The notes under the pieces are model-generated. The model was given only the letters and a program-made list of their open reading frames with translations. It ran no database searches and was not told the DNA's origin. Below are positions 1,536 through 35,362 of a stretch of 64,000 bases of DNA, piece after piece. The stretch lies in the NCBI GenBank assembly GCA_033648345.1, contig GCA_033648345.1_4121.1, one strand, 5' to 3'. Position 1 is the first letter of the stretch. Every line of letters starts with the position of its first letter. The stretch is from a phage. A program made the position numbers and the translations under genes.

Positions 1536-1565
1536 TTGGGACAACACTGAAAAGCATGATATAAT
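1536..1565 (+). promoter_or_regulatory. putative promoter, TGGGACA-N17-TGATATAAT variant
   Basis: ttgggaca ... tgatataat read directly; same architecture recurs at 6674, 24137, 35334. Confidence 0.45.
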
Positions 1566-1649
1566 GTATATTATCGGCAGATGTAAAAATGCAAACCATT
1601 CCTCAATGATGAGGGTTTTTCATAAAAAAGAAATAAAAGGGTATTAAAA

Positions 1650-1859
1650 ATGGCTAAAGAAACTAACGCACAAGTACTAGATATCACCGACTTCGACCGC
1701 ACTGTGAACTACATTCAGTTCCAGATTCATCAAGCTGAAGAAGCTCTCGCAGTATTCCACGGTACTGGTGCAAGGCCAATCCGTTTTGCTCATCTAATTG
1801 CATGGAAGAAAAGTCTACAAGAAGAACTTTCTGAACTGCGTAAAGCAAACCGTAAGTAA
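1650..1859 (+). CDS. hypothetical protein (69 aa)
   Basis: ORF in track with AAAGGG RBS-like upstream; followed by terminator hairpin. Confidence 0.5.
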   Translation: MAKETNAQVLDITDFDRTVNYIQFQIHQAEEALAVFHGTGARPIRFAHLIAWKKSLQEELSELRKANRK

Positions 1860-1870
1860 TTGATTTCCTG

Positions 1871-1897
1871 CCTCATCAATGTTGATGGGGCTTTTTA
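1871..1897 (+). terminator. rho-independent terminator
   Basis: cctcatcaa-tg-ttgatgggg hairpin followed by cttttt. Confidence 0.55.
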
Positions 1898-1923
1898 ATA
1901 AAATACAAACTGAGGATATATTA

Positions 1924-2430
1924 ATGAGTGTTGAATATTGGTTTTTGTTTATATGTCTTGGTACACTAGTACTGATTACATTGGGCTTAATCTTCAATAC
2001 GGTAATCAGTGGTAGTAATTACTTCAAGTCATTTCAACTTCTAATGTCAGCAATGCAGTACAGTGACGAGGCAGAAGAAACCACTACGTTGATTTTGAAT
2101 AAACTTGAAGCTAACTTACTGGTTGCTAAAATTTCTTCGTGTAATACAAATATTGTATTTTATGCATCACCCGTGGACATTAATGGGTACGAAATGAGTT
2201 ACCAGCCAGCCGTTGCTGAAATTTTTATTGGTTCTAAGTATTATGCATATGGATATATCCGAAAGTATTATACTGAAGCAAAAGCCGAGCTAACAAAGAA
2301 ACGACCGTCAATTAAGACATTAAAGCGTATCATCGCACTAGAAAAGAAACTACGAGGTGATGTGACAAAAAATGATTCACCCACTGTAGTAAATACAAAG
2401 AAAAAAAATAACGTAGTGGAGTTGGATTAA
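1924..2430 (+). CDS. hypothetical membrane-associated protein
   Basis: track ORF trimmed to ATG at 1924 after GAGG; N-terminal hydrophobic helix. Confidence 0.45.
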   Translation: MSVEYWFLFICLGTLVLITLGLIFNTVISGSNYFKSFQLLMSAMQYSDEAEETTTLILNKLEANLLVAKISSCNTNIVFYASPVDINGYEMSYQPAVAEIFIGSKYYAYGYIRKYYTEAKAELTKKRPSIKTLKRIIALEKKLRGDVTKNDSPTVVNTKKKNNVVELD

Positions 2431-2735
2431 TGGACGCAGATAAATCAAACAGTATTCTTATTGATGTACAAACGAAGTTATTAGATGTTATGGAAATCAT
2501 CAAAGATTTACCACAAGGATATCAGTTTAAAGTTCGTGAAATGTTATCTTGTGCAGAAACGGTTGTGTCTATGTACAATGATGTGCAGCATGGAATTATC
2601 CCTGAAATTCTTCAAGATGGTCTAAATATTAACACAAAGATTCCAGCACAAGAGCCTGAAGAGGTTGTTCAGCCTGAACCAGAACCTCCTTTACGTAAAG
2701 TACTGGATCTATCTGGTATCAAAATTAACATCTAA
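2430..2735 (+). CDS. hypothetical protein
   Basis: ORF in track; start overlaps upstream stop. Confidence 0.5.
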   Translation: MDADKSNSILIDVQTKLLDVMEIIKDLPQGYQFKVREMLSCAETVVSMYNDVQHGIIPEILQDGLNINTKIPAQEPEEVVQPEPEPPLRKVLDLSGIKINI

Positions 2736-2757
2736 AATACATTCAATAGGAGAAGTA

Positions 2758-2904
2758 ATGAGTAATCAAAAAATTGACTTAGTAGTAAAACTTCAAGAGA
2801 TTCAAGCACTAGCTAAAGGACTTGATGAAAAACGTGCAGCAGTTGATTCACTGTGTGCAACAATTCTGACTGTTTTTGCAGATTACGAAAAGAAATCTGA
2901 TTAA
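2758..2904 (+). CDS. hypothetical small protein
   Basis: in-frame ATG after AGGAGAAG RBS inside track ORF 2665-2904. Confidence 0.4.
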   Translation: MSNQKIDLVVKLQEIQALAKGLDEKRAAVDSLCATILTVFADYEKKSD

Positions 2905-2913
2905 ACATTACTT

Positions 2914-2944
2914 TATACCCAGTCTAGTACTGGGTATTTTTTTT
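2914..2944 (+). terminator. rho-independent terminator
   Basis: atacccagt-ctagt-actgggtat hairpin followed by T8. Confidence 0.6.
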
Positions 2945-2955
2945 AAGGAAATAAA

Positions 2956-3348
2956 ATGACTGAATCTGAACTACGTGAAATGATAGATTTCATTTATGAA
3001 ATGGTGCAAGATAAAAATAACATTAATACAATTACTACTGGACCAAGACAAATTGGTAATCAAATGACATATTCGTTGTCCTTATGGTTACACCCGAACT
3101 TCAAGGTTGATTGTTTGCATTTTCGTCCTGATATTGATGCTTATTATTTTGTAAATCATGATGCATTAATGAAACCAAATAAGCGTCCAGTTGATGATGC
3201 CTTTGTGACGCACCCATTTTATCTGGCTGATTCCGAAGAAGATGAGTTTCAAAAGAACACAACGTTAAGCCCAGGTGAAATTTGCATCCCTTACACACTA
3301 AAAGATAAAATGATTTACATCACAGAAGTTATGAAAACATGCTGGTAA
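2956..3348 (+). CDS. hypothetical protein, EEE-F-Q-x-S C-terminal motif family
   Basis: ORF in track; contains SEEDEFQKNTTL motif shared with about 13 other ORFs. Confidence 0.5.
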   Translation: MTESELREMIDFIYEMVQDKNNINTITTGPRQIGNQMTYSLSLWLHPNFKVDCLHFRPDIDAYYFVNHDALMKPNKRPVDDAFVTHPFYLADSEEDEFQKNTTLSPGEICIPYTLKDKMIYITEVMKTCW

Positions 3349-3378
3349 GTGCAATGAAACTCTGATATAATACAAACA

Positions 3379-3615
3379 ATGATAATAGGAGGATATATGA
3401 AATTTATTAATTTTGATATTTCTAAGGCCAAAGAATTATTTGTAAGAAATGCAGTTTATGATATCATGTTACATAACGGTACTGTACAAGAAGATGTTGT
3501 ATTGTTTTCGTTTGATGGTGAAAATCTCGAAACTATATATAAATTCAGCAACTTAGATGGTGACTTTTGGGAAACCAGTGCTGTTAAAATGTATAGAATT
3601 AAAAAGGAGCATTAA
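3379..3615 (+). CDS. hypothetical protein
   Basis: ORF in track with GGAGG RBS. Confidence 0.45.
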   Translation: MIIGGYMKFINFDISKAKELFVRNAVYDIMLHNGTVQEDVVLFSFDGENLETIYKFSNLDGDFWETSAVKMYRIKKEH

Positions 3616-3616
3616 T

Positions 3617-4105
3617 ATGCCAATTCGTGGTGTACCAGAACCATTAATGGAAGTTATTAAGCATGTTCGCATTGGAGATCGAGAAGTTAATCTTCGCCGT
3701 AATAACATTTTTTACTTTAAAACTTCAGAAATGAGTTCTGTACAGATTGTCATTGGTACATCTATTAAGATTACTCGTGTACTTGATGGTAGTACTGACT
3801 TCGTTGAATATAATGTACTTACTAATAAAGTAACGCATATATATAAATGGAGTGGGTATAAAACTATTAAGTATGAATTTGACTTAGCTAGAACTGAAGA
3901 AGAACGATTTATGCTGAGTACTATCAATCCAGCAAACTATCCTGACCTTGATGCATTTTTGCTAATTTTAAAATTGTATAATGAAGCAAATCAGAAAGCC
4001 AAAGATTATGATAGAATCATGTATGAACGCCGAAAAGAACGTGCACAAAAAAGTTATGATCTGTATGATAGCCCATACGTGAAATATAGTAAGGGGTCGA
4101 AATGA
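3617..4105 (+). CDS. hypothetical protein, EEE-F-x-x-S motif family
   Basis: track ORF trimmed to ATG at 3617 after AAGGAG; TEEERFMLSTI motif. Confidence 0.5.
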   Translation: MPIRGVPEPLMEVIKHVRIGDREVNLRRNNIFYFKTSEMSSVQIVIGTSIKITRVLDGSTDFVEYNVLTNKVTHIYKWSGYKTIKYEFDLARTEEERFMLSTINPANYPDLDAFLLILKLYNEANQKAKDYDRIMYERRKERAQKSYDLYDSPYVKYSKGSK

Positions 4106-4506
4106 ATAAAGAAGTTCAAATTATCATAACTCCACCTATACAAAGTCTGGATGTATCCATTAGTGATTTTTTGGAAAAATACTATGAATGGTTTAATGAA
4201 GATTCAGTAATTTATAACCATTCATTACCTGATGGTTTCGTTGAGCTTATTGAATTAAATGCAAAATCACTATACTTCTGTGTTGAATACAATGATTATA
4301 TGACAGATGAAGTATATCGTTTTCGTTGTACATTGTATCCTAACCATTTTTCCATTGGTTATAAAGACTATCAGTACTGCACCACAAACTATAGTGTAGA
4401 GGAAGAATTTCAGTACAATTTACTTTATCCAGATTTAGATTATACGATTGCAGTGCTGTTGACTAAAATCATGGATTTTTATAAAGATAAATATAATGCA
4501 GCCTAA
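4102..4506 (+). CDS. hypothetical protein, EEE-F-Q motif family
   Basis: ORF in track; VEEEFQYNLL motif; overlapping start/stop. Confidence 0.5.
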   Translation: MNKEVQIIITPPIQSLDVSISDFLEKYYEWFNEDSVIYNHSLPDGFVELIELNAKSLYFCVEYNDYMTDEVYRFRCTLYPNHFSIGYKDYQYCTTNYSVEEEFQYNLLYPDLDYTIAVLLTKIMDFYKDKYNAA

Positions 4507-4681
4507 GACATTTGATGAGTGGTTTAATCTACACTATAATATAAATGCAGCAGATATATACTATTTTAAGCTTGAATTGTATATATCATTGCGTAACCCA
4601 ATTGAGTACTATAACAACATTATCAATTGTGATGATTTTGGTACATATTTTAGTATAGCAGTCATGGACAAAATAAGATGA
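4496..4681 (+). CDS. hypothetical small protein
   Basis: ORF in track, translationally coupled to neighbours. Confidence 0.35.
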   Translation: MQPKTFDEWFNLHYNINAADIYYFKLELYISLRNPIEYYNNIINCDDFGTYFSIAVMDKIR

Positions 4682-4860
4682 CACACAAAGAATGGTTAGA
4701 TGAACTAAAATTTAAACATAATCCTTTTGGTTTTGGTATACGCCAAGGTCATTATGATGTGTTAAAAGATAAACAACTTTTCAAATCATTGGTACTTAAT
4801 GAGGATAGTAATCACTGGTACATCTATGAGCTTGCAATTAGAGACAAAAAAATTGACTAG
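4678..4860 (+). CDS. MTHEEW-family small protein
   Basis: N-terminus MTHKEW and C-terminal W(Y/F)IYELA(I/F)RD shared with 5406-5576; MTHEEW N-terminus also in 7240, 7401, 7562. Confidence 0.5.
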   Translation: MTHKEWLDELKFKHNPFGFGIRQGHYDVLKDKQLFKSLVLNEDSNHWYIYELAIRDKKID

Positions 4861-4905
4861 TACTGATATATATGCTATTCTTTTGTTTTAAGCAGGAGAA
4901 CAATA

Positions 4906-5409
4906 ATGCTCATTACGCATGTACCGGAAAGTATTACTGAGATTTTAAGTAAAATTAATGTTAATGAATTTGAACGAACAGTTCGAAAACAAGGTACTTA
5001 TCACTATAAGCACAAAGATGGTGAACATCAAATAAGCTTAGATCAGAATTATCAAACTCTAACAATTAAAATGGTTACTCGCTGGAATTTTATTCGTAAA
5101 GATACTATTATCTGTGATTTTGGTAAAAGACTACTTAGAAAATGTTTCTCTGAAACAAATGGTATCTATCCAAACCCGAATAGAATTTTCACATATCAAT
5201 ACATCACAGATGAAGATGTACATTTTCAAGAGAGTTTGGTATGTGATAATAAGTACTTTCCCGCATTTTCAGATAATTTGAAGTTAAAAGAACTATATAA
5301 CTATTTCTTAAACGACAATATTCTGTGGGATGAAGAATTAAAACAACGACAGATAGAACGTGAAAAGAAAAAAGTCTGGACTGGTTCACATTGGATGCAA
5401 CGTAAATGA
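4906..5409 (+). CDS. hypothetical protein, F-Q-E-S motif family
   Basis: ORF in track; DEDVHFQESLV motif. Confidence 0.5.
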   Translation: MLITHVPESITEILSKINVNEFERTVRKQGTYHYKHKDGEHQISLDQNYQTLTIKMVTRWNFIRKDTIICDFGKRLLRKCFSETNGIYPNPNRIFTYQYITDEDVHFQESLVCDNKYFPAFSDNLKLKELYNYFLNDNILWDEELKQRQIEREKKKVWTGSHWMQRK

Positions 5410-5576
5410 CACATGAAGAATGGATGTCTATTATGAAAGAACGATATGATCTGTTTGGGAATGGATTTCGTGATGGTCATTACGATATTTTACGAGACAA
5501 ACATCAGTTCGATTTATATGTACTAGATGAGGATGGAAATCGATGGTTCATATATGAGCTTGCATTTAGGGATTAG
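5406..5576 (+). CDS. MTHEEW-family small protein (56 aa)
   Basis: not in track (<60 aa); ATG at 5406 overlapping upstream stop; translation MTHEEWMSIMKERYDLFGNGFRDGHYD...WFIYELAFRD. Confidence 0.45.
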   Translation: MTHEEWMSIMKERYDLFGNGFRDGHYDILRDKHQFDLYVLDEDGNRWFIYELAFRD

Positions 5577-5586
5577 AAGATATATT

Positions 5587-5935
<349 letters not shown>

Positions 5936-5948
5936 CGAGGAATCCAAA

Positions 5949-6146
5949 GTGACTAAAGCAGAACTTGTAGCATTATTGGAATCATATCCCGATGATGCAT
6001 GTATTGAAGTTGTTCATAATGCGAGACATTTTGACATTGAAGATGTAGTACGTTATAATGACAAAGGTGTACTCATCATGGAACTATGTATTGGTGAAAT
6101 GAAAACTGTACCCGAATCAGAAAAACGTAAAAATAGTAAACCGTAA
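5949..6146 (+). CDS. hypothetical protein
   Basis: ORF in track (GTG start) after GAGGAA. Confidence 0.45.
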   Translation: MTKAELVALLESYPDDACIEVVHNARHFDIEDVVRYNDKGVLIMELCIGEMKTVPESEKRKNSKP

Positions 6147-6156
6147 GGAAAATAAA

Positions 6157-6375
6157 ATGGAATCTACTCTATTAGAAGTTATTAACTCATTAAACGCTGG
6201 CGACAATGTTCAAGTACTCCTTCAGGGATATCGTGTAAAAGGTTCAGTAGTTTTAGTTAATGATACCACTGTTGTTGTAACTGAAACTAACCCGTTTGAC
6301 AGTAATGAACTTGCTAATATCCATATTGATATTAAAAGTATTATTGGTGTTGGTGTAACTAAACCACAAGAATAA
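6157..6375 (+). CDS. hypothetical protein
   Basis: ORF in track with AAGGAAAA RBS-like upstream. Confidence 0.45.
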   Translation: MESTLLEVINSLNAGDNVQVLLQGYRVKGSVVLVNDTTVVVTETNPFDSNELANIHIDIKSIIGVGVTKPQE

Positions 6376-6396
6376 CAATTGTTATTGGGGATTACT

Positions 6397-6669
6397 ATGC
6401 ATTTTGAAAAATTCAATACAAATCGTAACACACGCATTGACGTTCTTTATGAAACACAAGACTCAATAAGCATTCGTACACGTAGTGGTGATGTATATCA
6501 TGACTGTACTATTGGTTGGGAACAGGGAAGAACACGTAGTGCAGAATTCGATAACTATCGCTTCTACCAAGGGGACACCACAATCTGGCCTGAACACGTA
6601 GAAGATATTGCGATTGAAGATGAACATAAAGATGAATTTATAAAATTTAATCCCGAAACCGAATCATAA
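6397..6669 (+). CDS. hypothetical protein
   Basis: track ORF trimmed to ATG at 6397. Confidence 0.45.
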   Translation: MHFEKFNTNRNTRIDVLYETQDSISIRTRSGDVYHDCTIGWEQGRTRSAEFDNYRFYQGDTTIWPEHVEDIAIEDEHKDEFIKFNPETES

Positions 6670-6673
6670 ATAT

Positions 6674-6702
6674 TGGGACAGACCAAAAAGATGTGATATA
6701 AT
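6674..6702 (+). promoter_or_regulatory. putative promoter, TGGGACA-N17-TGATATAAT variant
   Basis: tgggac agaccaaaaagatgtga tataat. Confidence 0.45.
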
Positions 6703-6725
6703 TATTAACATGATAACAAAAATAC

Positions 6726-7130
6726 ATGGAACGTAAAATGTGGGGAAACGAATATAAATCAAAACAAGGAAATATTGGAGTTGCTCGTGCAATAGATTAC
6801 TATGTCACGAATGGTTATTCAGTGTCGATACCGATGAATGACACACAATCATATGACTTGGTTGTTGATGATAATATTAAATTGTATAGAGTATCCGTAA
6901 AAACAACATCATACAAAGCACCATCTGGAAATTATAATGTCCAACTAAAAAATAGTGGTGGTTCTAGTGGTAAGAGTGTTATACGAAACTTTGATAAAAC
7001 ATCGTGTGACATACTGTTTGTGTTGTGTGATAATAATGACATATATATCATCCCAATTGATGACATTGATGCACATTCAGCATTTACATTAACTGAAGAA
7101 CGTAAGAAATATATTAGAAAATTATATTAA
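6726..7130 (+). CDS. hypothetical protein, possible PD-(D/E)xK-like nuclease
   Basis: ORF in track; D...VSVK spacing weakly resembles PD-(D/E)xK; low certainty. Confidence 0.45.
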   Translation: MERKMWGNEYKSKQGNIGVARAIDYYVTNGYSVSIPMNDTQSYDLVVDDNIKLYRVSVKTTSYKAPSGNYNVQLKNSGGSSGKSVIRNFDKTSCDILFVLCDNNDIYIIPIDDIDAHSAFTLTEERKKYIRKLY

Positions 7131-7136
7131 AAATAT

Positions 7137-7222
<86 letters not shown>

Positions 7223-7239
7223 CAATTAAAGGTTAAACC

Positions 7240-7400
<161 letters not shown>

Positions 7401-7404
<4 letters not shown>

Positions 7405-7561
7405 CACATGAAGAATGGATGAATGACATTAATTTTAGATATTCGGGTATCGGTAAATGGCTAAAGTATCATTGGGAATTCATTTCAGAGCCACATCTGT
7501 ATGATAAACTTATCAACGATCCAGCATATGAAATGTACTTAATTGAACTACTGGTACGAAT

Positions 7562-7565
<4 letters not shown>
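7401..7565 (+). CDS. MTHEEW-family small protein, tandem copy 2
   Basis: ATGA start/stop overlap with copy 1; same length. Confidence 0.45.
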
Positions 7566-7733
<168 letters not shown>

Positions 7734-7734
7734 G

Positions 7735-8188
<454 letters not shown>

Positions 8189-8216
8189 GTATCTTAACAA
8201 CAGAAGGTATATTGAA

Positions 8217-8456: not shown

Positions 8457-8532
8457 GATAAAAAGAACTTTACTAAATAATTCCACTGGAGATTAATATG
8501 TTTAAAGATGAACGTCCAGATTTGTAAAAAGT

Positions 8533-8561
8533 ACTTGAATAAATAATTCAGTACTGATATA
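8533..8561 (+). promoter_or_regulatory. putative promoter TTGAAT-N17-TATAAT
   Basis: acttgaataaataattcagtactgatataatg. Confidence 0.45.
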
Positions 8562-8926: not shown

Positions 8927-9455
<529 letters not shown>

Positions 9456-9456
9456 T

Positions 9457-23132: not shown

Positions 23133-24101
23133 GTGAAAAAGCTTGATTTAAATGCAATTTCTGAAGAAGTACTGGATGAGTGTTTTGCTAGTGAAGAAGT
23201 CAACGTATTAGAGGCTCTTGATTCCGTCGAAGAAGAAGAAGAACATGACGGTCACAAGTTTGAGAAACCAAAAACAGGTATCAGCTTAACTCGCCCTAAA
23301 GGGATAACGAATGAAATGCTCATCCAAGCAGTGCGTGATGGTATTGACGTTGAAAAGAACATTGACCTTTTGGTTCGCTACAACTATCCAATGGTAGTAA
23401 GTGTTGCACGTAAGTGTACATGTTTTATCCCATTTGAAGATAAGATTTCTTATGGTGTTGAAGGTTTAATGCGAGCAATTCATACGTTCGACACTACCAA
23501 AAATGTTAAGTTCATTACATATGCAACAACAACTGTGTACATGACAATCTATAACGAAAGTGCAGATGCTAATTATCTAGTGCATTTCCCACGTTATATG
23601 AGTGTTAATAACATTTATGTGAAACGTTGTGTAGAAGAGTATCAAAGGAAACATGGTAAATACCCAACTCCTGAGATGGTGTCAAAAGAGACTGGTATTG
23701 AGATTCAACACGTTAAGAATTGTCTAACTTACAATAACACTTATGTAGCATTGAATATGAAAATGAGTAATGATTCAGAAAGTACATTATCTGACATTGT
23801 TACTTCAGTTGAACCTGATTACAACTTAGGCGTAGAAACTGTCAGTACCCCACTGGTACAAAGTATTGCAGAAATGATGAGTAACCTATCTGCCAAAGAC
23901 CGTGAATTGATTGAACGTGTACATGGTATTGGTTCTTATTCTGAACCAGAAACGCTACGAGAAATCATTGAGAGTGGTTTTGAAGATGAGAAGGGTAAGG
24001 TCATGACTGCTCGTTCTTCATTGCACCGTAAGTACTCTGAAGCAATGGAACGACTGCGTAAGATGGTTAAGACAAAAGGTTATGAGTTCGAAGATTTTTA
24101 A
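23133..24101 (+). CDS. sigma-70 family RNA polymerase sigma factor (322 aa)
   Basis: region-2-like MVVSVARK...YGVEGLMRAIHTFD...KFITYATTTVYMTI and region-4-like LSAKDRELIERVHGIGS...ETLREII; recognised from motifs only. Confidence 0.7.
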   Translation: MKKLDLNAISEEVLDECFASEEVNVLEALDSVEEEEEHDGHKFEKPKTGISLTRPKGITNEMLIQAVRDGIDVEKNIDLLVRYNYPMVVSVARKCTCFIPFEDKISYGVEGLMRAIHTFDTTKNVKFITYATTTVYMTIYNESADANYLVHFPRYMSVNNIYVKRCVEEYQRKHGKYPTPEMVSKETGIEIQHVKNCLTYNNTYVALNMKMSNDSESTLSDIVTSVEPDYNLGVETVSTPLVQSIAEMMSNLSAKDRELIERVHGIGSYSEPETLREIIESGFEDEKGKVMTARSSLHRKYSEAMERLRKMVKTKGYEFEDF

Positions 24102-24107
24102 GATTAA

Positions 24108-24135
24108 AGGGTTGACTTCGGTCAGCCTTTTTTTT
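24108..24135 (+). terminator. PeSL-like stem-loop plus T8 (terminator; -10 degenerate in this copy)
   Basis: ggttgac-ttcg-gtcagcc hairpin followed by T8. Confidence 0.6.
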
Positions 24136-24136
24136 A

Positions 24137-24165
24137 TGGGACAAATTTATTAATGGTGATACAAT
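24137..24165 (+). promoter_or_regulatory. putative promoter, TGGGACA-N17-(TG)ATACAAT variant
   Basis: tgggacaaatttattaatggtgatacaat; precedes ORF-free region. Confidence 0.45.
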
Positions 24166-24171
24166 GATCTA

Positions 24172-24660
24172 TGTACAATCACAATGACAGTACTGGTACT
24201 GACAATCTTCCCCTACTTCACTTGAAAATGTAAAGGATAGATGAGCTTTTCATTGTAGCGAACAGCAAAAGAAACCCGTTAGATGTGGGCATAGTTTGAA
24301 CCCCTCACGGCAATGCGGCTGTATAAAGAACCACGTTAGGATAGCTGGTGGTTCCTCGATAGACATATAAGGATAACACCTTACGAATTATCTAAGGGAG
24401 AGTTATCGAATTTTGTACAGGAAAGTTGCGTCCAAAATTTGAGTACTCACATTAAGTATTTGATTGCATAGATACTTAATGAAGATACACTATGTTTAAA
24501 AGTGTAGACCGTCATATGAAACTGAAGTAGAGAGAAACAGGATGACCCGCTTTCGCACTCGTTATGAGTAATCTTCAATGCAATAGCTCTGATACCATCA
24601 GCGTCAAATTTCCCTCCGTGCGGGGGGAAGAAAAATCCCTTCCTCAAATCCCGTCAATAT
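24172..24660 (+). ncRNA. candidate structured non-coding RNA (about 490 nt, function unknown)
   Basis: no plus-strand ORF of 60 aa or more in an otherwise ORF-dense region; locally GC-richer; multiple stems (e.g. gaaccac...gtggttc); bracketed by promoters. Confidence 0.35.
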
Positions 24661-24669
24661 TAAAAGTCC

Positions 24670-24698
24670 TTGACAGTTATGATTCATTCGCGTAGAAT
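24670..24698 (+). promoter_or_regulatory. sigma70-type promoter TTGACA-N17-TAGAAT
   Basis: ttgacagttatgattcattcgcgtagaat. Confidence 0.5.
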
Positions 24699-24762
24699 AC
24701 GTAGTATTAGAAGCGAACAGACATCTCGAAGAGATGGATGATTAACCATTGAGGAATATCTA

Positions 24763-24972
24763 ATGAATTCAGTAATCTTTTTAATTATTGCTCTTTCACC
24801 ACAATCTGGTGTACAAATCACCCCAATGAATTCAATGAATCAATGCATTGCAGTACGTGACAGTACGTATGAACAAGTAAACAGCGTTTCACTTAGAACA
24901 GTTGGTGAAGAATTAATGTGGTGTTACAATAGTAATACTAAAGAAAAACTAATTGTTGGACAAACAGAATGA
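24763..24972 (+). CDS. hypothetical small protein with N-terminal hydrophobic segment
   Basis: ORF in track after GAGGAA. Confidence 0.4.
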   Translation: MNSVIFLIIALSPQSGVQITPMNSMNQCIAVRDSTYEQVNSVSLRTVGEELMWCYNSNTKEKLIVGQTE

Positions 24973-28382: not shown

Positions 28383-28897
28383 TGGATATTAATGAGTTGT
28401 TGATCTTATTGTTTAATCGTGGAAATGATGTAAGACGTTCTGAATATCAAGACAAAATTCACATTGAAACTGATAAATGTTATGGTAAAACAACTCATGA
28501 GATTTTGAAGCCAAATGGCAAACGATATGCCGATGTATGTTTTCATGAACGAAGTGATGGTAGTGAAATAATCAGTACTGAAATTGTGTTTTATGATAGA
28601 TCCTCGGCAGGTTCGTATGAAATAGAACTTATATATTGTCCTGGTTCAGAAACACACAATAAACGTCAGATATTATATGATGTTTATTCACCTCCAGGTG
28701 TAGCTGAATATTTTGTTATTGATTACAGTACTGAAGAAAGTGTGTTTCAACAGAGCTTGATTCATAACTTCCAGTTGAATGATCCAAATGTACCAAAGTT
28801 GTTCAAACTACTCGATACTATCGATGTTGATTTTGAATTTGTTATGTGCATTAGAACTTCCTTGATCGATGAATTTATGGAACTACTTAATATATGA
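28382..28897 (+). CDS. hypothetical protein, EE-x-F-Q-Q-S motif family
   Basis: ORF in track; STEESVFQQSLIHN. Confidence 0.5.
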   Translation: MDINELLILLFNRGNDVRRSEYQDKIHIETDKCYGKTTHEILKPNGKRYADVCFHERSDGSEIISTEIVFYDRSSAGSYEIELIYCPGSETHNKRQILYDVYSPPGVAEYFVIDYSTEESVFQQSLIHNFQLNDPNVPKLFKLLDTIDVDFEFVMCIRTSLIDEFMELLNI

Positions 28898-29115
28898 ATC
28901 GTTACTACATTGTGTATGAGCATGTATCTGAGTTTAATAATGTACGTGGTTATAAGAAAGAAGTACAGAAGATTGATGTATTTGTTCGTGCATTAAGTCC
29001 AACACATGCACTATTTAAATTGTTTGATGAAGTAACTAAGTACAACACACCAAAAACACAACGCTATATTGAAACAGTACATAGTGTAATACTCACTGAA
29101 TATGATGGAGAATGA
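28894..29115 (+). CDS. hypothetical small protein
   Basis: ORF in track, coupled. Confidence 0.4.
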   Translation: MNRYYIVYEHVSEFNNVRGYKKEVQKIDVFVRALSPTHALFKLFDEVTKYNTPKTQRYIETVHSVILTEYDGE

Positions 29116-29118
29116 CAA

Positions 29119-29337
29119 ATGAATTTATATCTAGTTGAAGGGTCAGTACAAGTATCCAAGCAAGACGGAGAAGGGTATCGTTTTTCACATGTAGAATATT
29201 TTAAGTACGTAGTAAAGGCCGATGGTCAGTACGACGCAGAAATTCAGGTTGAAGAATCATTCCGTAAGAAGAATGATATTGGTAAATTTGAATACCAAGA
29301 CTTACAATTCACTGTATGGCCTAGCATTAATGACTAA
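29119..29337 (+). CDS. hypothetical small protein
   Basis: ORF in track. Confidence 0.4.
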   Translation: MNLYLVEGSVQVSKQDGEGYRFSHVEYFKYVVKADGQYDAEIQVEESFRKKNDIGKFEYQDLQFTVWPSIND

Positions 29338-29338
29338 G

Positions 29339-29542
29339 ATGTGGTGGTGTCATGGTGTCTACAATGTCTATGAATATGGTAGATTCAAAATGAGCAGCAC
29401 CTATGCCAGACGTGTTAATGCGAAAAACCAAGTTGATGCTGCTTGTGAGATTGTAGAGTGGTATGCAGAGTTCAATGCAATTGATTTTATGTACGAAATA
29501 GTTACAATAAATGTTGTACAAATTGACACGTCTCTGATATAA
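29339..29542 (+). CDS. hypothetical small protein
   Basis: track ORF 29222-29542 trimmed to ATG 29339. Confidence 0.3.
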   Translation: MWWCHGVYNVYEYGRFKMSSTYARRVNAKNQVDAACEIVEWYAEFNAIDFMYEIVTINVVQIDTSLI

Positions 29543-29578
29543 TAACTACATCAAAAAACAACTGCAACTGAGGATACT

Positions 29579-30241
29579 ATGTTAGTTAATCTTAATTTCA
29601 TCACTTCTCCTGATTGGGCATTGCGTGGTGTTTCTTTGAACTTTAAAGAAACTAATTTCGACTACATTGGTGATTGTACTTTAGTTAATGCTACATTTGA
29701 TCCTCATCATCCTTTTTGGGCTGAGATTCATGATCCTAATGTAAACAATAGTACATCTGTTATGACTATTGTACAGACGAAACATACAGGTATCCTCGCA
29801 GGTTACAGACCTGAACATGCCATCGAGCACTTCACTGATTATGATGTAGTAGATGCATATCCAATGATCCATGAAGATGGAAGTTTATACACGTCAGAAG
29901 ACTTCCGTGCTATCTTTAATAGTACTGATAACATTCTACCAAGTGGTCGTCCACGCCCTGAGTCTTATCTTATGCACCCGTCTTATGGTGTAGCAGATAC
30001 GCTTGAACAGATTTTGACGAAGTACAAGAACCTTATTGAAGGTCCAGAAGAAATTGTCTTGTGCTATCATCCAGTACTGAAGTCTGACCAACCAGAGAGT
30101 GGTGGGTGGCGTTGGCATAAGAATGGTGAGTACATCGGTACTAAGCGTAGTAAAGAACGCTTTGAGTACTTGTATGATGAGCCAGATGTTGAGGTTGTTT
30201 TATGTTATAATTTTCTTAAGGTGAAAAAGAAATGTATCTAG
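29579..30241 (+). CDS. hypothetical protein (220 aa)
   Basis: ORF in track after GAGGA. Confidence 0.5.
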   Translation: MLVNLNFITSPDWALRGVSLNFKETNFDYIGDCTLVNATFDPHHPFWAEIHDPNVNNSTSVMTIVQTKHTGILAGYRPEHAIEHFTDYDVVDAYPMIHEDGSLYTSEDFRAIFNSTDNILPSGRPRPESYLMHPSYGVADTLEQILTKYKNLIEGPEEIVLCYHPVLKSDQPESGGWRWHKNGEYIGTKRSKERFEYLYDEPDVEVVLCYNFLKVKKKCI

Positions 30242-30474
30242 TATTGAGTTTTGTAGTTGCATTATTGTTTATGTTCTACCCTACACTAGTAGCAGTAGCC
30301 ACTAAACGAAAGCTGGTGGATATCACTACTGTATTCTTGCTAAACGTGGCACTCGTTCTAGTGTCTATTATCATTCCCGTGAACTTTACGGTTATTGACA
30401 TGGCATCTGTATTACTATTCGTCTTCAGTTATCTTATGCTTATTGAAGAAAAACCTGTTGACAAACGTTTGTAG
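30232..30474 (+). CDS. small membrane protein
   Basis: two hydrophobic helices. Confidence 0.45.
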   Translation: MYLVLSFVVALLFMFYPTLVAVATKRKLVDITTVFLLNVALVLVSIIIPVNFTVIDMASVLLFVFSYLMLIEEKPVDKRL

Positions 30475-30485
30475 TACTGTATAAT
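30458..30485 (+). promoter_or_regulatory. early-type promoter TTGACA-N16-(TG)TATAAT
   Basis: ttgacaaacgtttgtagtactgtataat. Confidence 0.6.
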
Positions 30486-30532
30486 GGTTCTTGTAGTCTG
30501 AAACTTAACACTTAAACTTGAGGATATAAAAC

Positions 30533-30859
30533 ATGTTATCAGTTCTAATTTCAATTCCTGCTCTAATTCTGTTATGGGTTATGGTTTTCGAATTCTTCAT
30601 TAAAGACGAAACCGAGCGTGATGAGTTTCGTGAGTTGTTTATGTTAGACTCACCCATTGCACGAATCTTCTTCGTTGTAGTACTTATTTCAGTACTGTCA
30701 TGGTTAGTAAGTTTTGTATTACCAATTGGACCATTTGTTTCAATTATGAATTTAGTTGAGAACATTGTTGGTATTGTATGGTTTACTAATGCATTGTTTG
30801 CTGGTAAAGTTTCCATTTGGTTTGATATCTTGAAAGATAAACTAACTAGTAAGAAGTAA
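30533..30859 (+). CDS. small membrane protein
   Basis: ORF in track after GAGGATA; hydrophobic helices. Confidence 0.45.
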   Translation: MLSVLISIPALILLWVMVFEFFIKDETERDEFRELFMLDSPIARIFFVVVLISVLSWLVSFVLPIGPFVSIMNLVENIVGIVWFTNALFAGKVSIWFDILKDKLTSKK

Positions 30860-30937
30860 CGTTCAAAAAGTCTCTAATAGTATTAAATACTTCTGTACAA
30901 ATAATATGTACAGAAGTATTGCTCGTTAGAGGTTATA

Positions 30938-31303
30938 ATGAAAAAATATATAAAAATGATAATGGTGTTTGTAGTATTCATGCTTTATTCAAGGTTCAGT
31001 ACAGCCGTACCTGCTTACCTTGATTGTATGGGAAACGATGGAACATGGCATGTACTTTCTAATGACCCACAAAATGGAAACAATATTGTCGTAGATAATG
31101 AGGTTTACCGTTTCAGGGCCGAGAGTTTGATTGGGAATAAAAAGGTATCGACATATAAATCAGATGCTGGTATAATAGCAAATGTAATATTGATAGTGGA
31201 CCCCAAGACAAAGGATGGGGATATTTACATAGTCATTTATCAAGATTCGTCGAACAAACGCGATCAGGATATTGATAAATTGAATATTCATTGTGAACTT
31301 TAA
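30938..31303 (+). CDS. secreted protein (signal peptide)
   Basis: N-terminal hydrophobic leader ...SRFSTAVPA. Confidence 0.5.
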   Translation: MKKYIKMIMVFVVFMLYSRFSTAVPAYLDCMGNDGTWHVLSNDPQNGNNIVVDNEVYRFRAESLIGNKKVSTYKSDAGIIANVILIVDPKTKDGDIYIVIYQDSSNKRDQDIDKLNIHCEL

Positions 31304-31313
31304 GGTATAACAA

Positions 31314-31697
31314 ATGATAAACGATGTAATGCTTTATGTATTAATTACTCCGATTCTTATTAACTCAGTAATAACTATTTCAATGGCATTATTTGGTATA
31401 GTAGCAATTGTTTATGCGGTAAGTACTGGAAAGTATACTTTAATTAGTAAGGTTGATTCATGGTTCGCATCTGATAGTGTACCATATTCAGCTAGTATGA
31501 TTACGATTGGTATTCTAATCGTTGCATTTACACTGCACTGTATTGGTTTTATTAATACAAGTATTTTTTCAGTTTTTATTGGTCTATCATTATATCCATC
31601 ACTTTGGTACTTGATTTATGTAACCGATGTTTGGTATAATAACTACAAGCAGTACAAAGTGAAGAAATCCATTTTATCCAAAGGAAACAAATCATGA
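31314..31697 (+). CDS. integral membrane protein
   Basis: multiple hydrophobic helices. Confidence 0.45.
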   Translation: MINDVMLYVLITPILINSVITISMALFGIVAIVYAVSTGKYTLISKVDSWFASDSVPYSASMITIGILIVAFTLHCIGFINTSIFSVFIGLSLYPSLWYLIYVTDVWYNNYKQYKVKKSILSKGNKS

Positions 31698-32044
31698 AAG
31701 TAATTTTGTTTTTTGTTTGTATGATTATATGTGGTATGTCTTATGCAGAACCATTACCTGGACTAGTCTGTACTGAAGGTGATATTAAACACATTTACCA
31801 AGGTGATAGCGATGACCATACTATCGTTTATATCGATGGTGAAGTGTATAATTTTGTTAAAGAACATACTGTAGGTGACATTAGTTTTACGCAGTACTCG
31901 AATGATACTGATCCCAATATGCTTGCATTTCTTCAAGTTGATGTATATGAAGAAAGTAATGGCGAACAGTATGTTAAACTTGTGATGATGCGTAAGGCAG
32001 CAAAACAGGCAACATTCGGTGGCTTGTGTAAATATGAGGACTAA
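31694..32044 (+). CDS. secreted protein (signal peptide)
   Basis: leader ...CGMSYAEP. Confidence 0.5.
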   Translation: MKVILFFVCMIICGMSYAEPLPGLVCTEGDIKHIYQGDSDDHTIVYIDGEVYNFVKEHTVGDISFTQYSNDTDPNMLAFLQVDVYEESNGEQYVKLVMMRKAAKQATFGGLCKYED

Positions 32045-32048
32045 ACAT

Positions 32049-32240
32049 ATGTTGATTTACCAATGTGATAACATTCGTGTTATGCAGCATCCCTACTTAC
32101 AAATCTTTGATGTGCAGCAGTATATGGAAGGTGATGACCCAAGAACCTATGGTCGTAAGTATGATTACTTCACTGTAAAGCAGTGTCATAACATCAAAGA
32201 AGTACGACAATTAGTTCAAGAACTTCAAAATAAAGGTTGA
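32049..32240 (+). CDS. hypothetical small protein
   Basis: track ORF trimmed to ATG 32049. Confidence 0.4.
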   Translation: MLIYQCDNIRVMQHPYLQIFDVQQYMEGDDPRTYGRKYDYFTVKQCHNIKEVRQLVQELQNKG

Positions 32241-32266
32241 CTTCGGTCAACCTTTTTTGTTATAAT
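32232..32266 (+). promoter_or_regulatory. PeSL cassette (stem-loop/terminator overlapping -35 TTGACT, then TATAAT)
   Basis: ggttgac-TTCG-gtcaacc, T6, tataat read directly; nine related copies in window. Confidence 0.7.
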
Positions 32267-32295
32267 TATTTCATCAACTACTGGGGATTTTAATT

Positions 32296-32736
32296 ATGTA
32301 CGTATATCGTTTTGAACTTAAATTCAGTTATATTGAACCTAACTTAGATCCAGCAAAAACAGTAGGGCCGTTCGCACGGTACTCTTCACGATACAGTACT
32401 AAAAATGGATTTGACCGTTTGTGCATGACCACGCCTTCGCAATTCCAACCAGAACCAACTGAAGATGGAATCTATTCAATCAAACGTGGCTGGGCATTTG
32501 GCTGTCAGAGTTTGAATGATTTGTTTAAGTTCTTTACTATGGACTTGGGTAAATTACATCGTGCAGGGTTTGCTGTATCAGTATATGAAGTTCCTGATAA
32601 TCATGTTGACATTGGTCGTAGTCAGGTTCAGTACTATTGTGGTAGTGCCAATCTGGTTCGTATTATGTCAGTGAGAGAAGCAAAGGATGAGTACCGCCAA
32701 AGTAAAAGAGTAATACATGAGGCTGTATATGGATAA
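32296..32736 (+). CDS. hypothetical protein
   Basis: ORF in track. Confidence 0.5.
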   Translation: MYVYRFELKFSYIEPNLDPAKTVGPFARYSSRYSTKNGFDRLCMTTPSQFQPEPTEDGIYSIKRGWAFGCQSLNDLFKFFTMDLGKLHRAGFAVSVYEVPDNHVDIGRSQVQYYCGSANLVRIMSVREAKDEYRQSKRVIHEAVYG

Positions 32737-33073
32737 GACTCAAATAGAATTAAAAAAATTTGTATCGTTTTATCTACCCAATGACCCACGTTGTACACAA
32801 TATGATGTTGCATATTACAATGCATTGACTACACAGTTAATGAAGAAATTCAAACAGTGTTTGACTGTATTCAATGATGATGGTAGACGTAGATATAGAA
32901 TCATTCCAATGAATGATGAAAACGATAACTACTTTGACTTTGATGTTGTTTTTCGAGCATACAATGATGATAGAATAAAATTAAATTATGAGCAAATAAT
33001 GCTTGACCTGAGTGTTATCTGTGTTATAATTACTCACATAGCCGAACTTGATGGTTTAAAAGAATGGTATTGA
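32729..33073 (+). CDS. hypothetical protein
   Basis: track ORF trimmed to ATG 32729. Confidence 0.45.
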   Translation: MDKTQIELKKFVSFYLPNDPRCTQYDVAYYNALTTQLMKKFKQCLTVFNDDGRRRYRIIPMNDENDNYFDFDVVFRAYNDDRIKLNYEQIMLDLSVICVIITHIAELDGLKEWY

Positions 33074-33087
33074 CTTAGAGGATAATC

Positions 33088-33354
33088 ATGAAGCTTAAAT
33101 TACAATACAATGGTTTTACTTTGCGTAACGACACTGAGTTTGTCAATCGTTCACCAGGTGCTGAGTTGTTTTTGCGAGAGATGAACATTCCTTTCGTCAT
33201 CACTACTGTTGGTGACCGTGAAGTTCTACAATACGCAGAGCATCCAGTTATTGATGTTCCGTGGTATTCTGAGCATATGTATATGGATATGGCCCGTCGC
33301 TACGACTGTAAGTTCGTAGTTGAAGGTGATAAAATTACAGTCCAATTCAAATAA
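33088..33354 (+). CDS. hypothetical protein
   Basis: ORF in track after GAGGATA. Confidence 0.45.
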   Translation: MKLKLQYNGFTLRNDTEFVNRSPGAELFLREMNIPFVITTVGDREVLQYAEHPVIDVPWYSEHMYMDMARRYDCKFVVEGDKITVQFK

Positions 33355-33365
33355 GGTAACTTAAA

Positions 33366-33659
33366 ATGATCAGTACTTCAGTAAATGCAAGCATCGTGGC
33401 AGACGTAGAAATGGTTAAAGAATGTACAGACGAAACCCTTCGCAACATGTACATCAACGATTTGATTTCAGAGTACGGAAGTCGTGGTGTTCATGAGTTT
33501 GTTCGCCTGAGCGGTGAATTGATGAAGAATCGCATTCGTATGAAGCTTAATGTGCATCCAAAAGCATGGGCGTTTACAATGAAGTACGCTGAAGATATTG
33601 TTGAGTTGCGTCGCAATGATGTGTATAATCGTTTACACAATGGTACATTAAAGGACTAA
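33366..33659 (+). CDS. hypothetical protein
   Basis: ORF in track. Confidence 0.45.
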   Translation: MISTSVNASIVADVEMVKECTDETLRNMYINDLISEYGSRGVHEFVRLSGELMKNRIRMKLNVHPKAWAFTMKYAEDIVELRRNDVYNRLHNGTLKD

Positions 33660-33709
33660 ATTATAGGAATCCGTAAAAGGATTCCTGTTCTTGTTTATAA
33701 GGTAATAAA

Positions 33710-33934
33710 ATGAAATATCTAGTACTAGTACTGCTATTCTTGAGTACTGTTGTATGTGCTAAACCAAAGTATCATGTAGTGTGTGTCAACGAGATGGAAG
33801 GATATACTGAAACATATAAGAACCATATTGTTGAAGTTGTAGCCCAAGGTTCCTATGGGACCATCATCTTCCTTAAGAACAATGTGATTGTTCAGTACAA
33901 AAAAGATTCAAATTGTAAAGTGACTAAAAAATGA
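33710..33934 (+). CDS. secreted small protein (signal peptide)
   Basis: leader MKYLVLVLLFLSTVVCA. Confidence 0.45.
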   Translation: MKYLVLVLLFLSTVVCAKPKYHVVCVNEMEGYTETYKNHIVEVVAQGSYGTIIFLKNNVIVQYKKDSNCKVTKK

Positions 33935-34004
33935 TCTAGATCAATTTTTCAGATATTCTCTGTAAATAATAGCAGTACAGAACATTATTTTACGGAGGTG
34001 TAAT

Positions 34005-34241
34005 ATGGAAACTATAATCATCATATGTGCGTTGTTTGCATTTTTGGTAATGTGGTCACCAACATTCATTGCATATAAAATGAAAAATAAAAATGCAGAA
34101 GCAATTATGTACGTAAACTTATGTTGCATACTAACTTATGGAATACTTTTATTCTTTACTGAATTTACATTAATCCCAGTAGTAGTTTGTTCATCAATGT
34201 TTATTTGGTTGTTTCTGCTTTATGAATCTATTAAAAAATAA
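34005..34241 (+). CDS. small membrane protein
   Basis: ORF in track after GGAGG; hydrophobic. Confidence 0.4.
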   Translation: METIIIICALFAFLVMWSPTFIAYKMKNKNAEAIMYVNLCCILTYGILLFFTEFTLIPVVVCSSMFIWLFLLYESIKK

Positions 34242-34295
34242 AAGATATAGGGTTGGTATTATACCAACCCTTTTACTTTATGTGGGGTTTAATTA

Positions 34296-34868
34296 ATGAA
34301 TAGAAAAGGTAAGTTTAAAGTATCAAAGAAGAACAAAAGTTCTAGATTTAGACCTATAACTTTAACTTTTAAGGCTAAAGAAGAATTAACTGCACTTAGT
34401 AAAAAGATAATTTCATCTAAGATTAAAGTATCATACGTAAATTCGGTAAAATTTCAAAAGGTTAAACCACAAGACAAACTCATTTCACTTATATTTAAAC
34501 GTAATGATTTTGAGATATTAGTAGATGATTATAGAGCCTATAATGCTGGATTCATTCATGTCACTTGTAATACCGAACTAACTGAGTTGGAACATTTGAC
34601 ATGTATCATAAGTGTAGATAACGGTGTGGTGAAGTACAATTTTTTACATTTTACCAATATCAATAATGGAATGGGTGTACAATCCAGACCTATAGTACCT
34701 ACATGTGATGTGACTAATTTAGCAAAGCTCAATGAAGAAGAATATTTTCAAGAAAGCATTGTAACTGAGCATTTAGATGCTATAATAGCAACTTACAAAG
34801 AATGCATATGGGTTTTGAATGCGATAAAGCCCAAATTGTGTTTAATGAATGTCGTTCGTGATTTATAA
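34296..34868 (+). CDS. hypothetical protein, EEE-Y-F-Q-E-S motif family
   Basis: ORF in track; LNEEEYFQESIV. Confidence 0.5.
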   Translation: MNRKGKFKVSKKNKSSRFRPITLTFKAKEELTALSKKIISSKIKVSYVNSVKFQKVKPQDKLISLIFKRNDFEILVDDYRAYNAGFIHVTCNTELTELEHLTCIISVDNGVVKYNFLHFTNINNGMGVQSRPIVPTCDVTNLAKLNEEEYFQESIVTEHLDAIIATYKECIWVLNAIKPKLCLMNVVRDL

Positions 34869-34881
34869 CTGGAGATGTAGT

Positions 34882-35325
34882 ATGGGTTGGATTAACGTTA
34901 ATAGCATTGAACTAAATGAGCAAGACATATTTGCCTTTGTTAATTTGGTAGAGAACATTGCTATTAAAGGTCGTCTGTTTAGTTCATCGGACGGTAAAAA
35001 ATGGATCTCTCTTATGAACGACAATGGCGAGATTTATGACGTTATGCAACTACCTCATTGGGCTTATAAGAATACATCTGATGATGTGATGGCTGCTGTT
35101 ATGCGTGAGTTTGAAAAGCTACCTGGTGGTGATATTAAGAACATCGTATTCAATGCAGAACGCATGAACTACACACCGGAGCAGCTTCAACAGTTGGCAA
35201 TTGCTGCCTATCAAGCTGCCATTAAGAAACCTGAATGTGTGATATTAAAGTACACACCGGACTTGAAGTTAACACTAGAAGATATGGATTCCTTTATCTT
35301 CAGTTCAGAACTTAAACAGTACTGA
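34882..35325 (+). CDS. hypothetical protein
   Basis: track ORF trimmed to ATG 34882 after GGAG. Confidence 0.5.
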   Translation: MGWINVNSIELNEQDIFAFVNLVENIAIKGRLFSSSDGKKWISLMNDNGEIYDVMQLPHWAYKNTSDDVMAAVMREFEKLPGGDIKNIVFNAERMNYTPEQLQQLAIAAYQAAIKKPECVILKYTPDLKLTLEDMDSFIFSSELKQY

Positions 35326-35333
35326 TTTGACTT

Positions 35334-35362
35334 TGGGACAACCATTTCATACGTGATATAAT
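35334..35362 (+). promoter_or_regulatory. putative promoter, TGGGACA-N17-(TG)ATATAAT variant
   Basis: tgggacaaccatttcatacgtgatataat. Confidence 0.45.

Follow-up and report, generated by a model that had tools for sequence, protein, structure and literature searches.

A putative second promoter class with a TGGGACA box in jumbo phages of the genus Asteriusvirus

Introduction

Promoters in which another conserved box takes the place of the −35 element TTGACA have been predicted in Pectobacterium phage CBB, where 18 "divergent RpoD-like" promoters carry TGAAACG instead (PMC5259590, Buttimer et al. 2017). Eleven of them stand before open reading frames (ORFs) for DNA synthesis and one before the gene of a gp55-like sigma factor, the late motif of CBB is ATAAATA, and the same divergent promoters were noted in Cronobacter phage GAP32 (PMC5259590; Abbasifar et al. 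2014 as cited there). The 29-mers listed in Table S6 of PMC5259590, for example TGAAACGTAAGGAATTTTTCTGCTATAAT, consist of a 7-mer box, 13 further nucleotides (N13) and TGnTATAAT. Here we describe four sites of this build, with TGGGACA as the box, in a stretch of 64,000 nucleotides (nt) of phage DNA (contig GCA_033648345.1_4121.1, hereafter the window). This DNA shows ~98% identity to Escherichia phage BF17, which belongs to the jumbo E. coli phages of the genus Asteriusvirus and has a genome of ~380 kb; identity with the phages of the 121Q/PBECO4 group is 79-88%. Our comparisons support the conclusion that the four sites are promoters of a second, genome-wide, phage-specific class.

We found no description of such a class for Asteriusvirus in the searchable literature. 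Three Asteriusvirus genome papers contain no promoter analysis, the RaK2 paper does not mention promoters, and the PA5oct paper lists only TTGAC/TATAATA promoters. A literature search on TGGGACA returned noise only.

Results

The box, the spacer and the −10 element recur as one composite motif

The first-pass annotation, made from the letters of the window, had noticed four sites with TGGGACA in place of the −35 box, and this recurrence was borne out: the heptamer starts at positions 1537, 6674, 24137 and 35334, each time on the plus strand. The start given for the first site, 1536, is the T before the box, and the spacing of 17 nt given there holds only between the hexamers TGGGAC and TAYAAT. 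Measured from the full box, exactly 13 nt lead to the extended −10 element, which reads TGATATAAT at sites 1, 2 and 4 and TGATACAAT at site 3. The motif search that had been proposed as a check was run, and TGGGACA-N13-TGnTAYAAT occurred four times in the window compared with 0.00 times in 100 dinucleotide shuffles of it; likewise, GGGACA-N16-TAYAAT gave four matches where 0.07 were expected. The heptamer by itself was not enriched in the window (6 seen, 6.6 expected), so that only the composite motif is informative. The dominant TTGAC(A/T) class, from which the four sites had been set apart, proved equally real, with ~20 instances of TTGAC[AT]-N16-18-TAYAAT on the plus strand between 1 and 48 kb. 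At the 16-bp spacing, the dinucleotides before GAC[AT] in the window are TT (nine times) and GG (four times), and there are no others.

The downstream half of the motif agrees with sigma-70 recognition, as TATAAT (three sites) or TACAAT (one site) lies 16 bp from GGGACA, and all four sites have TG at −15/−14 and read TGATAYAAT. The upstream half does not form a proper sigma-70 −35 element in any register: GGGACA matches TTGACA at 4/6 positions without the TT at 16 bp, TGGGAC at 2/6 at 17 bp, and TTGGGA at 4/6 at 18 bp, the last at three sites only. Nor is there a MotA box ((a/t)3TGCTTtA), since TGCTT is absent and 16 bp separate the end of the box from TATAAT. We also compared the sites with the motifs of sigma-54, sigma-E, sigma-32, sigma-28, MotA and SPO1 gp28, and none fits. 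Stringently controlled stable-RNA promoters, which share the 16-bp spacer and have a tRNA or noncoding RNA (ncRNA) downstream, were ruled out by the AT-rich discriminators of the four sites.

These features leave room for a simple explanation, namely that the sites are ordinary extended −10 promoters of the host sigma-70. The box would then be a weak −35 element (GGGACA, 4/6 at 16 bp, or TTGGGA, 4/6 at 18 bp), tolerated or selected because TGnTATAAT makes a −35 dispensable. A weak −35 joined to TGn is the classic compensation pattern, and the chance-level frequency of TGGGACA alone is in keeping with it.

The class is genome-wide in 121Q and concentrated in replication modules

The complete genome of 121Q, put together from eight pieces, was used for a genome-wide census. 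NNGACA-N16-TATAAT occurs there with TT 17 times, GG 10, GA 5, TG 3, AG 1 and TA 1; when TGn is required, the counts become GG 8, GA 4, TG 3 and TT 2. Over the whole genome TGn is present with 12/15 G[AG]GACA boxes compared with 2/20 TTGAC[AT] boxes (Fisher p=5.5e-5), and GRGACA-N13-TGnTATAAT was found 12 times where 0.03 were expected. This is not what the host sigma-70 explanation predicts, as relaxed selection on a dispensable −35 should give many variants, with A-rich ones favoured at ~35% GC, whereas the TGn-bearing sites are confined to the four dinucleotides just listed.

A strict scan with the pattern [N]G[AG][AG]A[CT][AG]-N13-TGnTATAAT picked out 18 sites in 121Q, every one of them on the coding strand. 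They stand upstream of the SSB gene (a tandem pair), the gene after UvsW, DNA primase, an exonuclease, a gene next to NrdB, Nudix/glutaredoxin, the DprA/thymidylate-synthase cluster, the gp55-like late sigma with SbcCD, and four ORF-free gaps. Only 3/18 sites carry CBB-like boxes (TGGAACA twice, TGAAATG once). Canonical promoters of 121Q gather at 50-117 kb and 130-160 kb, in arrays of small early genes. The GGGACA class is dispersed; in the replication and nucleotide-metabolism modules it prevails and canonical promoters are few. One GGGACA box of 121Q lies inside a hairpin, GGGACAtaaTGTCCC, at 223613. Scans of IMG/VR for the exact motif gave multiple matches only for 121Q and two Munch-like jumbo contigs; nearly all other matches were single and chance-like, so the taxonomic range is not definable in that way.

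Recurrence of this kind could also come about by copying, through intragenomic homogenisation of mobile promoter cassettes by recombination, similar to the PeSL cassettes of T4-type phages and with no dedicated reader. The window does contain cassette-like subfamilies (hairpin-embedded TTGACT promoters and a CAGTACTG-TATAAT type), and the paralogs of an ncRNA downstream of site 3 show signs of exchange, the site 3 copy of the related phage ph0011 being closest to the 121Q copy at 326 kb. However, the spacers of the four window sites are unrelated, which indicates that the sites are not recent duplicates, and most spacers of the 121Q sites are unrelated as well. Conservation restricted to the box and the −10 element is the signature of selection on a binding site and not of copying, and we consider the cassette explanation highly improbable.

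Box and −13 base shift together between related clades

We then compared these sites with the CBB/GAP32 class. The Table S6 29-mers superimpose on the window sites, and also on sites in Serratia phage BF (Eneladusvirus) and 121Q. The downstream genes agree as well: 121Q has DNA-synthesis genes and the gp55-like sigma behind such sites, and in Salmonella phage 7t3 such sites precede RNaseH, SSB and the gp55-like sigma. The box is different, TGGGACA in the window not conforming to the TGAAACG type (TG[AG]AA[CT][GA]). From these alignments, the window sites are the Asteriusvirus version of the CBB/GAP32 class with a different box; promoters of this kind are already predicted in related genera, and the TGGGACA box is the new part.

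The difference follows the clades. Serratia phage BF has nine strict-pattern sites in its replication region, with TG[GA]AA[CT][GA] boxes and mostly TGGTATAAT as the −10 element. We compared orthologous promoters before RNaseH, SSB (the tandem pair), the gp55-like sigma and the gene that follows UvsW, and those of BF have TGRAAYR with TGG. In 7t3 and Munch-like phages their counterparts at RNaseH, SSB (both of the pair) and the gp55-like sigma have TGGGACA with TGATATAAT, while those of RaK2 carry (C/T)TGAAC(A/G) with TGATATAAT; the 40-90 kb part of RaK2, made up mostly of structural genes, yielded one example, and a second RaK2 region was added. Box position 4 is G in 15/18 sites of 121Q and A in 9/9 sites of BF (p=4.7e-5), and the −13 base is G in 0/18 versus 7/9 (p=4.1e-5). 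By clade, the combinations are TGGGACA with A at −13 (Asteriusvirus, Munch-like), TTGAACA (RaK2), and TGRAAYR with G at −13 (Eneladusvirus, CBB). A Munch-like contig (IMGVR_UViG_3300012988_000001, positions 1440-1545) has TTGACA-N17-TATAAT and TGGGACA-N13-TGATATAAT in tandem, ~45 bp apart, upstream of a NadM-Nudix gene, resembling the early-plus-middle pairs of T4.

The canonical TTGACA early promoters are unchanged in all these genomes, and region 4.2 of sigma-70 is essentially invariant in Enterobacterales. Clade-specific box shifts beside unchanged TTGACA promoters and an invariant host sigma-70 cannot be explained by the host sigma, and a phage-encoded reader appears to be the simplest explanation of the concerted shifts in box and −13 base. 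The same observations bear on the host sigma-70 explanation. In its favour, orthologous sites interchange with TTGGACA, TTGAAC-N17 and TTGACA-N17. But the CBB/BF box TGAAACG matches TTGACA at only 2/6 positions and yet is highly conserved, and box and −13 base shift together between clades whose hosts share sigma-70 specificity. Together with the 121Q census, this makes recognition by host sigma-70 alone unlikely in our judgement.

A phage RpoD-like sigma factor is the candidate reader of the box

The gene directly before site 3 (23133..24101, plus strand) encodes an RpoD-like sigma factor of 322 aa, which is the candidate reader. Sigma regions 2 and 3 were detected as Pfam Sigma70_r2 and r3; the Pfam model of region 4 itself was not detected in this protein, and region 4 was recognised by alignment and structural modelling. 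The protein aligns with RpoS, SigB and RpoD through region 4 (in the PDB alignment, with RpoS and SigB), and scores 96 bits against TIGR02393 RpoD_Cterm, below the curated cut-off. The AlphaFold2 (AF2) model has helices at residues 234-251, 254-264, 275-280 and 294-314 with pLDDT of 76-89, so that region 4 is predicted to be folded. An insertion of 9-13 aa precedes the recognition helix of region 4.2.

Orthologs of this sigma occur throughout the whole RaK2/121Q superclade. The recognition helix, TRERIRQ in sigma-70, is (A/S)RSS(L/I/V)HR in Asteriusvirus, SRTSLHR in Munch-like phages, VRGTLHY in RaK2, and SKATLSR in GAP32, CBB and Eneladusvirus; the window sigma has RSSLHR at the positions of R584-Q589. 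In region 3.0, P(R/K)Y goes with A/C at −13 and PEH with G. From clade to clade, box and −13 base change along with residues in regions 4.2 and 3.0 of this sigma. The first-pass annotation had suggested a separate recognition specificity, possibly that of the phage sigma factor or an activator; a distinct class with its own specificity is supported at the sequence level by the coupling of box and TGn, the gene modules, the geometry shared with CBB/GAP32, the clade shifts and the sigma helix.

Several observations weigh against recognition of these promoters by the phage sigma. Where group 1/2 sigmas have the contact residues W433, W434, Q437, T440, H455 and E458, the window sigma has T, T, M, Y, Y and V. 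The W433/W434 dyad is gone in every member of the superclade, Q437, T440 and H455/E458 are gone in Asteriusvirus, YATWWIRQAITR has become YATTTVYMTIYN, and PVHMxE has become PRYMSV. F419, K426, F427, Y430 and N383 are kept, and recognition of a TAnnnT-type −10 element by the phage sigma is conceivable from these residues; yet the contact residues are lost while the −10 element is the exact sigma-70 optimum, which makes the reading of TGnTATAAT by this protein uncertain. Moreover, the sigmas of the window and of 121Q share only 59% identity, though both phages use GGGACA. The covariation of box, −13 base and sigma comes from only 3-4 clades, and phylogeny confounds it. At individual orthologous sites the box is swapped with the near-canonical TTGGACA, TTGAAC or TTGACA, which points to functional equivalence with a sigma-70 −35 element, and the RaK2 box TTGAACA is itself near TTGACA. 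A search of the literature for RNA-seq or 5′-end data on Asteriusvirus found none. Taking both sides together, we give about an even chance to the proposal that the phage RpoD-like sigma reads the class, as the middle tier of a cascade.

The missing residues could also be read as a sign of sigma appropriation of the T4 type, in which sigma-70 would read the extended −10 element and a phage activator, with or without an anti-sigma co-factor, would bind the box, the RpoD-like sigma serving other promoters. The −10 element is a perfect sigma-70 extended −10 and the phage sigma is without the residues for −12 and TG recognition; in addition, the gene set matches the T4 middle genes, and the concerted box shifts need only a phage-encoded reader of some kind. 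On the other hand, phmmer (--max) with T4 AsiA and MotA, run on every ORF of 40 aa or more in 121Q and the window, found neither, the best E-value being 0.05 in what is a weak test with single-sequence queries. Pfam found no DNA-binding domain in the ten ORFs flanking the sigma gene, and the box, at −35 to −29, has neither the centre at −30 nor the 11-13-bp spacing that mark a MotA box. Appropriation would also leave a conserved early sigma without a promoter class. We regard it as possible but on balance doubtful. The sigma itself evolves fast, with 59% identity between the BF17 and 121Q groups compared with ~80% in the flanking DNA.

Context and conservation of the individual sites

Site 1 (1537..1565, plus strand) consists of the box at 1537-1543, the 13-nt spacer and TGATATAAT at 1557-1565. 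Downstream follow a conserved 85-nt leader and a 69-aa gene (1650-1859, phrog_15704) that is found throughout the superclade. In Asteriusvirus the orthologous boxes are TGGGACA, TTGGACA, TTGGATA, CTGGACA and TGGAACA; elsewhere the site is TGGGACA-N14 in Salmonella phage 7t3 and CTGAACA in RaK2, and phages of Yersinia, Serratia and Xanthomonas have the canonical TTGACA-N17 there. The leader (1566-1649, plus strand) is almost invariant across Asteriusvirus, and in Salmonella, Klebsiella and Yersinia phages the homology of this region starts at the −10 element. Ahead of the 69-aa gene the leader forms a terminator-like hairpin (1601-1614, CCTCA-ATGA-TGAGG) followed by GTTTTT (T-run 1616-1620), which suggests a possible attenuator or small RNA (sRNA).

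Site 2 (6674..6702, plus strand; TGGGACA-N13-TGATATAAT) lies upstream of a PD-(D/E)XK endonuclease ORF at 6726-7130 and a tRNA-like gene at 7137-7215. Its ortholog in ph0011 abuts tRNA-Ser, and that in 121Q, TTGGACA-N13-TGATATAAT, stands directly upstream of tRNA-Ser with the same geometry, outside the pattern of the strict scan. The endonuclease ORF (plus strand), which separates the site 2 promoter from the tRNA, is absent from that place in BF17 and 121Q. A NUMOD4/HNH endonuclease gene (36513-37055, plus strand) likewise lies just upstream of a large virion-protein gene (37060-38553), and both nuclease genes are likely mobile insertions.

Site 4 (35334..35362, plus strand; TGGGACA-N13-TGATATAAT) lies upstream of the virion-protein genes 35437-35820 and 37060-38553. 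It is kept in 121Q and ph0011, where TGGGA(CA) is conserved while the spacer diverges; in phage JNE01 a 12-bp deletion leaves TTGAAC-N17-TATAAT. Downstream of the site, at 35397..35404 (plus strand), is a T4-late-type motif, TATAAATA, which is invariant in four phages and ~33 bp upstream of the virion-protein gene. Site 4 and TATAAATA before the same gene thus form a predicted dual arrangement of middle and late promoters.

Two further stretches may belong to the class. At 553..581 (plus strand), within the 3′ end of an ORF, GTAGACG-N13-TGATATAAT is a possible weaker member, with GTGGACG-N13-TGATATAAT as its ortholog in 121Q. At 9112..9141 (plus strand), AAGGACA-N14-TGATATAAT is a possible member with one extra base of spacing, and it is kept in 121Q, ph0011 and JNE01 as AGGACA-N17-TATAAT. 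The −35-type variants at orthologous sites indicate that the box sits at the functional −35 position and is exchangeable for a sigma-70 −35 element over evolution.

A structured RNA downstream of site 3

Site 3 (24137..24165, plus strand; TGGGACA-N13-TGATACAAT) stands immediately 3′ of the intrinsic terminator of the phage sigma gene (24107..24135, plus strand), in which GGTTGAC-TTCG-GTCAGCC is followed by a T-run; this terminator shows compensatory changes in 121Q and ph0011. TGGGA is kept at site 3 in four phages and the spacer has diverged. Downstream there are ~600 bp without an ORF, and within them lies a structured RNA of ~440-500 nt (24172..24700, plus strand) that is predicted to be transcribed from site 3.

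Four paralogs of this RNA are found per genome. Those of 121Q (90339-90880, 192844-193316, 247513-247923 and 326695-327060) each lie directly downstream of a promoter of the class, and a copy in Serratia phage BF (4530-5044 of L124) is downstream of a TGGAACG-type promoter. The RNA stretch is 98-100% conserved among Asteriusviruses, although the protein of the adjacent sigma gene has only 59% identity, and it is present at ~70% identity in CBB, GAP32, Erwinia, Yersinia, EJP2 and Munch-like phages. RNAalifold predicted 74 pairs, of which 35 have compensatory double changes. Rfam searches of the window and of 24100-24800 gave no family for the site 3 RNA, only a terminator-like partial match to PhrS.

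Other features of the window

Positions 1-48,000 form a plus-strand array of small early-type genes with tRNAs. On the minus strand, 47869-63910 is taken up by an array of ~12 paralogs, 360-450 aa in length, which the 121Q annotation calls RCC1-like "DNA condensation" proteins; upstream of several there is a hairpin and then TTAAATATAGTATAAT. Terminator/promoter cassettes of the form AAAGGGTTGACTTCGGTCAGCCCTTTTTGYTATAAT were identified on the plus strand at 32238-32266, 35830-35860, 36485-36514, 39249-39277, 43612-43640 and 44496-44524; their −35 element TTGACT lies inside the stem of an intrinsic terminator, an arrangement resembling the PeSL cassettes of T4-type phages. Another plus-strand promoter subfamily has a conserved CAGTACTG(A) abutting TATAAT, with −10 elements at 7758, 8179, 8558, 10190, 26518, 30480 and 41721. 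The sequence AGTACT recurs in many hairpins of this genome.

Discussion

In the mechanism that we propose, a promoter of the class would consist of a 7-mer box at −35 to −29 (TGGGACA in Asteriusvirus), a 13-nt spacer and the extended −10 element TGnTATAAT, and a factor encoded by the phage would read the box, with region 4.2 of its RpoD-like sigma as the most probable reader. Host sigma-70 would first read TTGACA-N17-TATAAT, and the sigma gene itself would be transcribed from such canonical early promoters; the phage sigma would then read TGGGACA-N13-TGATATAAT, and the gp55-like late sigma would finally read TATAAATA. Both the identity of the box reader and the time of firing we infer from sequence comparison. 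As the extended −10 element is perfect, the host sigma-70 holoenzyme may also fire the class promoters early. The fullest form of the proposal, to which we give somewhat less than an even chance, is a three-sigma cascade of the RaK2/121Q superclade, in which an early sigma without the Trp dyad reads TGGGACA-N13-TGATATAAT, its −35/−13 specificity having co-evolved with the promoters, and activates replication genes, the late sigma, tRNAs and the four structured RNAs.

If this is true, a promoter class would be assigned to the RpoD-like sigma that marks the "group 2" jumbo phages, for which no targets are given in the searchable literature. The matched sigma and promoter variants (TGGGACA, TTGAACA, TGAAACG) would then form a natural series for the evolution of −35/−13 specificity, in a phage that its host, E. 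coli, makes experimentally tractable. The class marks a probable middle regulon that includes the four conserved structured RNAs, and annotation pipelines that look for TTGACA only miss its promoters.

The closest described promoters are those of CBB and GAP32, which have the identical 29-nt architecture, an A/T-rich spacer, and DNA-synthesis and gp55-like sigma genes downstream. In both cases the class stands beside early promoters of the canonical TTGACA type and ATAAATA late motifs, and both are known from bioinformatic prediction only. They differ in the box, TGAAACG/TGGAAYG there and TGGGACA here (TGRGACA across 121Q), in the preferred −13 base, G there and A/C here, and in that the present phage belongs to Asteriusvirus and infects E. 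coli.

The middle promoters of T4 likewise join a sigma-70-type, often extended, −10 element to an element that replaces the −35 and is not recognised by sigma-70. They drive replication, nucleotide-metabolism, tRNA and late-sigma genes and often stand in tandem with early promoters. However, their TGCTTtA is centred at −30 with 11-13-bp spacing, whereas TGGGACA occupies −35 to −29 with 16-bp spacing. Asteriusvirus-type phages, in addition, encode a full-length RpoD-like sigma, and no AsiA or MotA homolog was detected in 121Q or the window by the weak phmmer test.

In the cascade of Bacillus phage SPO1 (host sigma-A, gp28, gp33/34), an early phage sigma redirects the core enzyme to a middle class that includes the gene of the late factor, as would be the case here. 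The middle class of SPO1 departs from the host pattern at −35 as well as at −10 (AGGAGA / TTTNTTT), whereas the −10 element of the present class is indistinguishable from the host consensus. Finally, the extended −10 sigma-70 promoters of E. coli share the TG at −15/−14, the consensus TATAAT and a −35 that is free to deviate; in those promoters the −35 is unconstrained, whereas here a specific, clade-specific 7-mer is conserved.

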